Source: Nitrospirota bacterium (GTDB lineage Bacteria; Nitrospirota; UBA9217). Taken from it: 64,000 nucleotides of DNA. The stretch is from NCBI GenBank assembly GCA_963790205.1, contig CAWBNQ010000011.1, forward strand, positions 25,591 to 89,590, written 5' to 3'. Shown in pieces: positions 58,779 through 59,417 of the stretch (within the stretch, counting starts at the first letter, position 1; each line of letters begins with the position of its first letter). The position numbers and the translations under genes are program-made. Under the pieces are notes generated by a model. It saw nothing but the letters and a program-made list of their open reading frames with translations, was not told the DNA's origin and searched no databases.

Positions 58779-58855
58779 GACGATGGACGAGGGACGAGGG
58801 ACGAGAGGCGAGGGATGAAGGGCGAAAGACGATGGACGAGGGACGACAGGCGAAG
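58779..58855 (+). repeat. 11 tandem heptamers (GACGAGG-like) directly upstream of the four-helix-bundle gene
   Basis: gacgatg gacgagg gacgagg gacgaga ggcgagg gatgaag ggcgaaa gacgatg gacgagg gacgaca ggcgaag. Confidence 0.85.
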
Positions 58856-58860
58856 GAACC

Positions 58861-59244
58861 ATGACAATTTCGAAGAGAATTAACAGCGTAAGAGATCTGG
58901 AAGTTTACAGGCTGGCCTTTGAGGCTGCCATGGAAATATACAACGTCTCCAAGGATTTTCCAGCTGAAGAAAAATATTCGTTGACTGACCAGATACGAAG
59001 GTCTTCCCGCGCAGTGTGCGCCAATCTCTCTGAGGGATGGAGAAAAAGACGGTATAAAGCAGTGTTTATAAACAAGCTCTCTGACTCAGCACAGGAAGCC
59101 GCTGAAACTCAAACGTGGCTGGAATTTGCGTTGCGATGCGGTTATATTGATAATGAAACGTTCGACAGGCTGGACGAGCAATACGAGCATGTTTTTGCCA
59201 TGCTGCGCACTATGGAGAAAAAAGCCGATTCATTCTGTAAATAA
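58861..59244 (+). CDS. Four helix bundle protein (23S rRNA IVP / Avd-like family)
   Basis: RDLEVYRLA...FPAEEKYSLTDQIRRSSRAVCANLSEGWRKR...EAAETQTWLEFA. Confidence 0.9.
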   Translation: MTISKRINSVRDLEVYRLAFEAAMEIYNVSKDFPAEEKYSLTDQIRRSSRAVCANLSEGWRKRRYKAVFINKLSDSAQEAAETQTWLEFALRCGYIDNETFDRLDEQYEHVFAMLRTMEKKADSFCK

Positions 59245-59258
59245 ATTAGGAAAGAAAA

Positions 59259-59417
59259 GACGATAGGCGATGGTTGAGGTATACGTTCGTCGTCCCAGCG
59301 AGCGCAGCGAGCGTTCGTCTGTCGTCCATCGTTTACGGGGCAGTCGTCCGTCATCCTAGTGAGCAGAACGAACGATCGTCTCTCGTGAAAAGGGCGGTCA
59401 TCCATCGTCCATCGTAT
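59259..59417. repeat. Downstream heptamer region: 3 forward GACGATA-like units, then reverse-complement NTCGTCC-like units
   Basis: gacgata ggcgatg gttgagg ... ttcgtct gtcgtcc atcgttt ... atcgtct ctcgtga ... atcgtcc atcgtat. Confidence 0.7.

Follow-up and report, generated by a model that had tools for sequence, protein, structure and literature searches.

To our knowledge, no function has been assigned to the S23p/IVP protein family since its discovery in ribosomal RNA (rRNA) intervening sequences about 30 years ago, although two crystal structures of the family exist. Intergenic heptamer repeats, of which the cyanobacterial STRR are a further dispersed class, have been reported repeatedly without a mechanism. 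Both occur together at one locus of a Nitrospirota bacterium: within a stretch of 64,000 nucleotides (GenBank assembly GCA_963790205.1, contig CAWBNQ010000011.1, positions 25,591 to 89,590; the window), a gene for a PF05635-type four-helix-bundle protein (IVP) lies between inverted arrays of GACGAGG-type heptamers, in the junction between a Na+/Pi cotransporter gene (NaPi) and yjbQ. The co-evolution of gene and arrays makes both puzzles experimentally approachable. The interpretation favoured here, with moderate confidence, is that the junction holds a promoter-less, self-contained cassette in which arms, IVP gene and two 17-mers form one unit that is read through with the operon.

The 23S rRNA intervening sequences (IVSs) that bear an S23p gene are excised by RNase III, which cuts them mid-stem (PMC4990558). 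Avd, the accessory protein of diversity-generating retroelements (DGRs), has been described as a pentamer acting with RNA stem-loops in the DGR ribonucleoprotein, and DGR RNAs have been screened for 'Avd-binding stem-loops' (bioRxiv 10.1101/2023.10.23.563531). Heptamer repeats that lie between aligned genes, sometimes as inverted pairs, are described in three further studies (PMC4692102, PMC4679880, PMC2700814). In what follows, loci are numbered L, genomes of the host's own family (family genomes) G, and contigs of the own genome (4.34 Mb, 14 contigs) C; positions without a prefix are those of the window.

The cassette between NaPi and yjbQ

NaPi, which encodes a Na+/Pi cotransporter with PhoU domains (57139-58776, + strand; PF02690 E 3.8e-60, PF01895 E 2.2e-19), is the upstream host gene, and direct reading places its TGA stop at 58774-58776 and the start of the first heptamer 2 nt past it. 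The 5′ arm (58779-58855, + strand), recognised by direct reading, TRF, inverted matches and the predicted fold, is a purine-rich row of 11 tandem GACGAGG-type heptamers (in order, gacgatg gacgagg gacgagg gacgaga ggcgagg gatgaag ggcgaaa gacgatg gacgagg gacgaca ggcgaag). TRF reported a period-7 array at 58775-58846 (10.3 copies, score 74), with a super-period of 21 nt that extends to 58857. Five nucleotides, gaacc, separate the arm from the ATG at 58861, and the last arm units supply the cassette gene with a Shine-Dalgarno-like GAAGGA (58852-58857). The gene itself (58861-59244, + strand, stop at 59242-59244) encodes a 127-aa protein and is, as the preliminary description of the window had it, richer in AT than its neighbours, with a GC content of 44.5% compared to 59.6% and 57.9%, and a GC content at third codon positions (GC3) of 0.48 compared to 0.82 in the flanks.

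The 3′ side, also on the + strand, is more elaborate. Its proximal segment (59259-59332) consists, by direct reading, of three forward units (59259-59279), the loop tatac, reverse units (59285-59296), the 17-mer AGCGAGCGCAGCGAGCG (59297-59313) and further reverse units (59314-59332), and appears to be a nested mini-element because this layout is the same as that of the gene-less GACGAGG hairpins found elsewhere in the genome. The mid segment (59343-59386) has reverse units at 59343-59356 and 59375-59386 on either side of a second 17/18-mer, TAGTGAGCAGAACGAACG (59357-59374); it is kept in the metagenome contig L169, and related motifs are present in cassettes of other phyla. The distal 3′ arm, GTCATCCATCGTCCATCGT (59397-59415), is complementary to 58829-58847 and to 58780-58797 (89%) and forms the outermost stem of the fold. 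The row of reverse-complement units as a whole is thus broken twice, by agcgagcgcagcgagcg and tagtgagcagaacgaacg, which are mutually related, purine-rich and of the AGCGAGCG type. An inverted-repeat search of 58700-59500 joined 58780-58854 to 59314-59415 by arms of 18-19 nt with 89% complementarity. All of these elements (11 upstream units, three forward and then reverse units, two 17-mers) lie where the preliminary description had placed them. The ribosome-binding region of yjbQ, ataagagggggtagca (59416-59431, + strand), is specific to the module, and is followed by yjbQ (UPF0047; 59432-59830, + strand; PF01894 E 2.5e-43), the downstream host gene, which is 80-98% identical in relatives.

The cassette protein scored 116.3 bits against PF05635 (cut-off 33.8; E 9e-34) and 105.1 bits against TIGR02436 (cut-off 24; E 2e-30); PF05635 was its sole Pfam match, and no Y1 HUH (RAYT) transposase domain was found in it. 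The AlphaFold2 model (pLDDT 96.4) has four long helices, and Foldseek matched it to 2GSC (TM 0.84/0.90, rmsd 1.2 Å) and 2RLD (TM 0.75/0.87), followed by Avd (4DWL, TM 0.76/0.88, and 8UB8 chain D). The two leading structures were also matched by phmmer (2RLD, E 7.5e-11; 2GSC, E 3.8e-10). The protein is therefore confidently predicted to be a four-helix bundle nearest to 2GSC and 2RLD, with Avd next, in keeping with the structural kinship to Avd that had been proposed for it. By analogy with the five-chain entries 2GSC and 2RLD, and with a statement in PMC4990558, it is presumably pentameric.

The resemblance to Avd raises the question of whether the gene is a remnant, or a stand-alone Avd, of a DGR, and near DGR reverse transcriptases no Pfam family is more common than PF05635 (PMC10053308). 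However, the genome's only two RVT_1 genes (C3:663501 and C5:292679) lie on contigs other than those of the IVP copies or at distances of hundreds of kb from any of them, the neighbours of the cassette gene are a transporter and yjbQ, and the best structure and sequence matches are non-DGR proteins. The DGR reading was rejected because no reverse transcriptase is close to any IVP copy, and is considered highly improbable.

Gene and arms in the genome and across phyla

Period-7 arrays are frequent in this genome (approximately 460, with many different words), but such an array lies close to the start of only 6% of crude gene calls, and the share of gene calls with an array at both ends is 0.7%. 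There are four true PF05635 copies in the genome, including one pseudogene: the cassette gene (GACGAGG), C14:70645-70962 (GGGNNCA), C1:495865-496170 (AAGTAAG; also given as C1:495847-496203) and the pseudogene C3:880124-880448 (AGTCAGG; also given as C3:880109-880478). The preliminary description had proposed that such paralogues be checked for period-7 inverted flanks, and all four have them, with forward units upstream, the complement downstream and a word that differs from copy to copy. Their upstream/downstream inverted-repeat scores were 13 (the cassette), 14 (C14), 21 (C1) and 17 (C3), with a lag-7 autocorrelation of 0.67-0.83, while 396 control small genes had a median of 8, a 95th percentile of 10 and a 99th percentile of 15. 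Inverted heptamer arms at IVP genes exceed chance, since arrays at both ends are this rare and all four paralogues score above the 95th percentile.

The same arrangement is seen in relatives. Homologues of the cassette protein occur in 43 of the 64 family genomes, and nearly all of the 30 best family loci and 20 further loci (25-40% identical) have inverted arms, with 19 of the 20 distant ones scoring at least 24. More than 598 subfamily relatives were found in species-representative genomes. In a cross-phylum test of 96 near-full-length loci, in which an inverted arm alignment was counted at a score of at least 20, 84 loci (88%) from many phyla had inverted arms. Same-locus inverted scores had a median of 35 (65% at 30 or more), compared to a median of 17 (6% at 30 or more) for arms of different loci and 16 (6%) for the direct-orientation control. 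Unit numbers range from 3 to more than 20. The preliminary description had spoken of a period of 7; this needs amendment, as the period, where clear, was 7 in nine loci and 8 in 17, with 8-mer words such as GAAGGTGG, GACGCGGG and GGTGACAA. A 23S similarity search found no 23S rRNA location among 110 related loci, and the genome's sole match to the conserved 23S motif searched is on contig C1, the cassette being located between NaPi and yjbQ and not in 23S rRNA.

In 82 of the 84 loci, purines predominate in the 5′ arm (median 83% purines, GC skew +0.74), and approximately 33 of 39 inverted period-7/8 pairs genome-wide have the same purine-to-pyrimidine polarity. The purine-first polarity belongs to the element and not to a strand; because it is reverse-complement symmetric, it is uninformative on which strand matters. 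Speculatively, purine-first polarity might ensure that the C-rich arm is never unpaired in the transcript, so that Rho loading in the host operon would be avoided.

Complementarity between the arms of different loci rises with the identity of their proteins, from 6% of pairs at 50-59% identity to 18% at 60-69%, 38% at 70-79% and 70% at 80-89%. The closest relatives outside the family, 68-79% identical, are from Neomarinimicrobiota, Auribacterota, Margulisiibacteriota, Deltaproteobacteria, Brocadiaceae and Omnitrophota; most have GAYGARG arms, and several have an AGCGARGCG-type motif inside the 3′ arm. Because the arms diverge with the protein and the closest relatives in other phyla keep GAYGARG arms, these comparisons show gene and arms to be travelling as one unit, with gene, arms and 17-mer inherited and horizontally transferred together. 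The earlier proposal that gene and arms make up one cassette is borne out by the flanks at all paralogues and nearly all relatives, by this co-divergence and by the shared word in other phyla.

Within the family, copies 76% identical to the cassette protein have GACGAGG/GACGAAG arms at other junctions (L045, with at least 20 units, and L046, between xerC and hslV). Where an rfaE-like gene adjoins a metalloprotease gene, the word drifts between GAAGTTGG, GAAGGTGG and GAAGGTAA, both arms changing together; at another syntenic site the words are GACGCGGG and GGTGACAA, again with the arms in step; and in gene-less NaPi-yjbQ modules GACGAGG shifts towards GGATGTG with a matching 'catccaacatccc'. 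These alignments show that the arms stay mutually complementary while the word drifts. In the convergent rfaE-like/metalloprotease pair (L048-L052, L054, L059), the cassette orientation of L052 is the reverse of that in most genomes, which would fit either inversion between the inverted arms or an independent insertion.

At least seven gene-less GACGAGG hairpins are present in the genome, at C3:163278, C3:352752, C5:511045, C8:198547, C8:200221, C11:106981 and the xerC-hslV junction (C3:375234-375340); 17-mer matches were accepted with up to three mismatches and a CGTCC context, and hairpins of this word with the 17-mer were counted at 7-8 sites besides the cassette. The typical layout is three to four forward units, a short loop, two reverse units, the 17-mer and two reverse units. 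The xerC-hslV hairpin is without the 17-mer and retains 'gaaccATGa', which is the start region of the cassette, and the family genome G009 has an intact IVP gene at the same junction; for these two reasons the hairpin is read as gene loss in situ. Three other hairpins have similar loops (gcaaaggcttttt, gtaaagattttt and ataaagcttatt), and this similarity suggests that they were copied in gene-less form. IVP pseudogenes were found at L053, L062 and the genome's own C3:880109-880478. Collectively, these loci show repeated decay of the cassette into pseudogenes and gene-less hairpins.

The hairpins inside the window have other words, namely GCAAATT, AGGGTCC, CGGAGTY and GCGGATT. The suggestion that gene-less hairpins are empty derivatives of the cassette therefore stands for the GACGAGG hairpins elsewhere in the genome and at the relatives' junction but not for those of the window, which are not derivatives of the GACGAGG cassette because their words differ. 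AGGGTCC/GGGTCCA-type words make up the arms of different IVP subfamilies in relatives (L153, L167), AAGTAAG, the word of the C1 paralogue, occurs in 24 arrays in the genome, and GCGGATT, the largest word family, was not found with an IVP gene in any of approximately 116 loci.

Such observations bear on a different explanation, in which heptamer hairpins are a genome-wide repeat class of their own (simple sequence repeats, G-quadruplex-forming or repetitive extragenic palindromic (REP)-like) and IVP genes insert into, or are tolerated in, existing loops. The roughly 460 arrays set against four IVP genes, the lack of any IVP gene with GCGGATT, the largest word family, in approximately 116 loci and the similar short loops of gene-less hairpins, as though copied gene-less, would all be expected from it, and GGGACGA is a G3N4 motif of the Rehm type, like the GGGAATC repeats reported for Xanthomonas (PMC4692102). 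However, arm words track the protein clade across phyla and not the host, the 17-mer motif moves with the subfamily, matching arms are present at 88% of loci, and G-tracts are missing from many arm words (AAGTAAG, ACAGTAG, GGATACA). Separate origins of hairpins and gene are thus thought unlikely, and a single gene-plus-arms cassette is preferred.

Several further observations concern PF05635-like genes and repeats of this genome. The AAGTAAG paralogue has a complete AAGTAAG/CTTACTT hairpin on either side, giving a whole-hairpin direct repeat (C1:495775-496257), and its final codons (…KTSKK*) are encoded by repeat units. Proteins of approximately 150-280 aa with a PF05635-like N-terminal half are encoded at C1:76852, C1:658769, C1:770467 and C1:993051; three of the four have short tandem peptide repeats mid-protein (HTDKQ…, DRSDQADRTD…, YRTDRSYRTYRTY…), TRF found period-9 DNA arrays beside two of them, and the C-terminus of the C1:993051 protein (CxxC…CxxC) resembles a topoisomerase-type zinc ribbon. 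GxxExxY (PF13366) genes, six full-length (C1:1054002, C2:41956, C6:63133, C3:657483, C5:46058 and C5:80619) and two fragmentary, have inverted flanks with scores of 10-27; the best inverted arm examined per gene has no lag-7 periodicity (0.14-0.30), words include CGCAAAG, CACGAAG and CGCGGAG, and the C2 copy is surrounded by period-8 CACGAAGC arrays (TRF). At C1:1173672-1173699, four forward-only GACGAGG units precede an A-run; they lack an inverted partner and apparently lie within a coding region or at its end.

In the window, period-7 arrays are located at 23042-23067, 28463-28586, 30910-30932, 33973-34011, 35708-35740, 42395-42462 and 61166-61198, with the words GCAAATT, CTGGACC/GGGTCCA, AGTCCGG, AGTTCGG, CAGGGGC and GGAATGC/AAAATCC. 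A large CRISPR array (53493-57013; repeat of about 37 nt, GTAGCGCCCCTCAGCGATGAGGGGCGAGGATTGAAAC, period of about 70, approximately 40-50 repeats) lies directly upstream of NaPi.

History of the junction

NaPi-yjbQ synteny is kept in approximately 28 family genomes, and comparison of the gap, as had been proposed, revealed the cassette, its remains, unrelated modules or almost nothing. An IVP/GACGAGG cassette is present in the own genome, G033, G017, G073 and G076, and a decayed one in G083 (three stops) and G081. A gene-less GACGAGG hairpin occupies the gap in G007, with the 17-mer, and remnants of one in G013; other genomes have unrelated hairpins (AATCCGC in three genomes, and CACGAAG with a 332-nt loop), and the remaining gaps are 20-34 nt or absent, NaPi and yjbQ overlapping. 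Junction content differs even between the sister species G033 and G026. Among metagenome contigs, L169 has flanks 96-97% identical at the protein level and a cassette, and L170 has a 98% identical yjbQ and a gap of only 43 nt. The dispersed motif CGCGAGTGCAGGGCGCG, intergenic at C1:505226, C6:64193 and C9:20597, is also found inside some GCGGATT modules at this junction (L204, L206).

One pair of differing junctions, L171 and L172, has a flank dS of 0.04-0.05; the cassette is present in L172, and a GCGGATT module of 148 nt in L171. In their alignment, identity is approximately 99% until two codons short of the NaPi stop and returns to this level at the yjbQ ATG, so that everything intergenic, the yjbQ ribosome-binding site (RBS) with it, has been exchanged as one module, with breakpoints at the stop and start codons. 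The RBS stretch goes with the module: it is purine-rich and closely similar in GACGAGG-type modules (ataaGAGGGGGTAgcaATG here, and variants) and reads 'aaaaaccggaggtttcaaATG' in GCGGATT-type ones. The locus is in effect a natural experiment, in which near-identical backgrounds have the cassette, a gene-less hairpin or a different module.

Over longer times the cassette persists. Among five genus-level orthologues the IVP gene has a dS of 0.58-2.3, similar to that of the flanks, and a dN/dS of 0.04-0.14, which shows the protein to be under strong purifying selection. The cassette at NaPi-yjbQ thus looks like an old resident that has been mostly vertically inherited, and a recent insertion was ruled out by the similarity of these dS values to those of the flanks. 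A simple, stable vertical gene was ruled out as well, by presence and absence at a flank dS of 0.05 and by mosaic divergence from L169: between the own genome and L169 the flanks have a dS of 0.12-0.20 and the IVP gene 0.92, and the extra divergence is limited to the ORF and the proximal 3′ mini-hairpin, the distal 3′ arm being like the flanks. Because of this excess, the cassette interior may either have been replaced by recombination within the arms or be mutating faster than its surroundings. Of the mobility attributed to the unit in the preliminary description, transfer with arms and presence or absence at the junction are supported; no sign of cut-and-paste was found, and the mapped swap is one of a whole intergenic module.

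Long residence under strong purifying selection, together with a yjbQ RBS that each module brings itself, would also suit a host regulatory module, in which IVP is a repeat-binding regulator and the arrays are an operator or attenuator that tunes expression of the phosphate transporter and yjbQ; heptanucleotide repeat families of Geobacter have been proposed as sites of a global regulator (PMC2700814). However, the same cassette type is found at unrelated junctions (xerC-hslV, rfaE-like/metalloprotease, proC-yggT, uvrC/suhB-like) and in many phyla, and at NaPi-yjbQ itself it is absent, decayed or replaced in most genomes, some with overlapping genes. A dedicated role in regulating these two genes is accordingly seen as quite unlikely.

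RNA fold, proposed mechanism and comparison with known systems

Both the minimum free energy (MFE) and the centroid RNA folds pair the arms and leave the ORF in the loop, and the imperfect stem enclosing the ORF that had been predicted from inspection is thereby reproduced: there are terminal inverted repeats with an S23p-type ORF in the loop, although the stem is imperfect and interrupted. If the arms were kept as a helix in sense RNA, G·U wobble pairs might be expected to accumulate. Of 363 mismatches in arm alignments, read on the sense strand, 72 were compatible with G·U and 98 were of the A·C type, a difference opposite to that expected (p = 0.055). Selection for pairing in sense RNA is not supported, and since there is no G·U excess, the arms seem to owe their complementarity to strand-symmetric processes at the DNA level or to recent copying. 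The same mismatch types lend no support to the earlier idea of an RNA-processing unit.

Cassettes are co-oriented with both neighbours at 58 loci and opposed to both at nine, and a consensus scan found no promoter or terminator at the cassette. Given also that the Shine-Dalgarno sequence is in the last arm units, the cassette is likely expressed by read-through of the host operon. Searches of Rfam (a single sub-threshold snoRNA match) and PADLOC returned nothing relevant.

Orientation, the missing promoter and terminator signals, the Shine-Dalgarno sequence inside the 5′ arm and the folds around the ORF could also be produced by an mRNA-level intervening sequence, with arms selected as a double-stranded RNA stem whose cleavage by RNase III frees the IVP message and separates or stabilises the NaPi and yjbQ cistrons; RNase III excision has been demonstrated for S23p-bearing IVSs (PMC4990558). 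However, the wobble signature is missing, the stem is imperfect (approximately 89%, in stretches of 18-19 nt) and broken by unpaired 17-mers and the nested hairpin, and the arm polarity is strand-symmetric. An element selected primarily as an mRNA intervening sequence is considered rather doubtful.

In the preferred interpretation, a self-contained cassette read through with the operon, there would be three parts: a purine-rich tandem GACGAGG array that also bears the Shine-Dalgarno sequence of the gene, a gene, rich in AT, that encodes a four-helix-bundle protein from the 23S-rRNA-IVS/Avd family, and a pyrimidine-rich inverted array broken by AGCGAGCG-type 17-mers. The arms may fold back in single-stranded DNA, in the operon transcript or in both, so that the loop contains the gene, in the manner of 23S rRNA intervening sequences. 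By analogy with Avd and its RNA stem-loops, the protein may bind its own repeat array or stem and so favour persistence or spread of the cassette. Complementarity would be maintained mainly at the DNA level, by array slippage, template switching or conversion between arms, and the arms could serve as portable homology for exchange among cassettes and hairpins of one word. Cutting of the mRNA stem by RNase III is likely, but would not be the main selected feature. A wider proposition is that IVP proteins are sequence-specific binders of their own 7-8-nt arrays and constitute pan-bacterial, minimal, enzyme-less elements that spread as gene plus arms, with the arms acting as portable homology or as hairpin substrates, and leave gene-less hairpins, that 23S IVSs are copies landed in rRNA, and that much of the heptamer excess known from intergenic DNA of prokaryotes is their footprint; this is put forward tentatively, as an idea with a rather low probability.

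Several findings weigh against a self-contained, spreading cassette. Neither a transposase nor a target-site duplication nor a clean empty site was found, filled and empty junctions differing across the whole intergenic region, and ordinary homologous recombination within the flanking genes accounts equally well for the L171/L172 swap, the sole one with mapped boundaries. Because its dS in the five genus-level orthologues is about that of the flanks, the gene behaves as an old resident under purifying selection, and such selection over a dS above 1 suits a gene that benefits the host no less than a selfish one. The GC3 of IVP is 0.43-0.49, compared to 0.70-0.82 in flanking genes, in all five genera (own genome and L040-L043) despite a dS of about 1, so that the cassette interior is either actively kept AT-rich or renewed from outside. 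The variable number of units gives no simple five-unit match to a pentamer, and the fold of the 662-nt region as a whole has a z-score of only -1.5.

What the locus adds is the history of the junction, a module swap between flanks that have hardly diverged, arms that diverge together with the protein, transfer across phyla that includes the arms, a conserved 17-mer, the universal polarity of the arms, the strength of selection on the protein and a negative wobble test. No paper describing an association of PF05635, TIGR02436, S23p, Avd-like or GxxExxY proteins with heptamer arms was found in the literature, and a term search of PMC4692102, PMC4679880 and PMC2700814 did not find a link between repeats and a gene cargo. 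The dispersed heptamers of Xanthomonas and Nostoc (GGGNATC, PMC4692102), Beggiatoaceae (TAACTGA, PMC4679880) and Geobacter (PMC2700814) resemble the present arrays: both consist of tandem 7-nt units whose copy number runs from a few to many, are enriched between genes of the same direction and frequently form convergent inverted pairs; in contrast, the arrays here bracket one gene family and co-evolve with it. REPIN/RAYT systems and MITEs (miniature transposable elements with inverted repeats) likewise have few gene-bearing copies and many gene-less inverted-repeat derivatives with the same arms, intergenic and often in operons, and a comparable pattern is seen here, with one gene-bearing and at least seven gene-less GACGAGG copies and AAGTAAG in 24 arrays. 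However, the cargo of the cassette is a small helical protein without HUH or other catalytic motif, and its arms are tandem arrays whose word varies by subfamily, with no target-site duplication seen.

Avd (4DWL, 8UB8), which forms a positively charged barrel of five subunits and works on structured RNA beside its gene, shares the four-helix-bundle fold (TM 0.76-0.88) but has approximately 10% sequence identity, and no reverse transcriptase is near the cassette. The 23S rRNA IVSs of Leptospira, Coxiella burnetii and Xanthomonas (PMC4990558) share with the cassette the protein family PF05635/TIGR02436, an ORF of approximately 120-130 aa in the loop of a stem formed by terminal inverted repeats, an AT content higher than that of the host, a sporadic distribution and an ORF prone to decay. 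Whereas those elements occupy helix 25 or 45 of 23S rRNA and have a simple 28-bp stem, the cassette is located between protein genes of an operon and has arms of long 7-8-nt tandem arrays with an asymmetric 17-mer. Compared with the literature, it is a variant of the IVS-type ORF-in-a-stem element.

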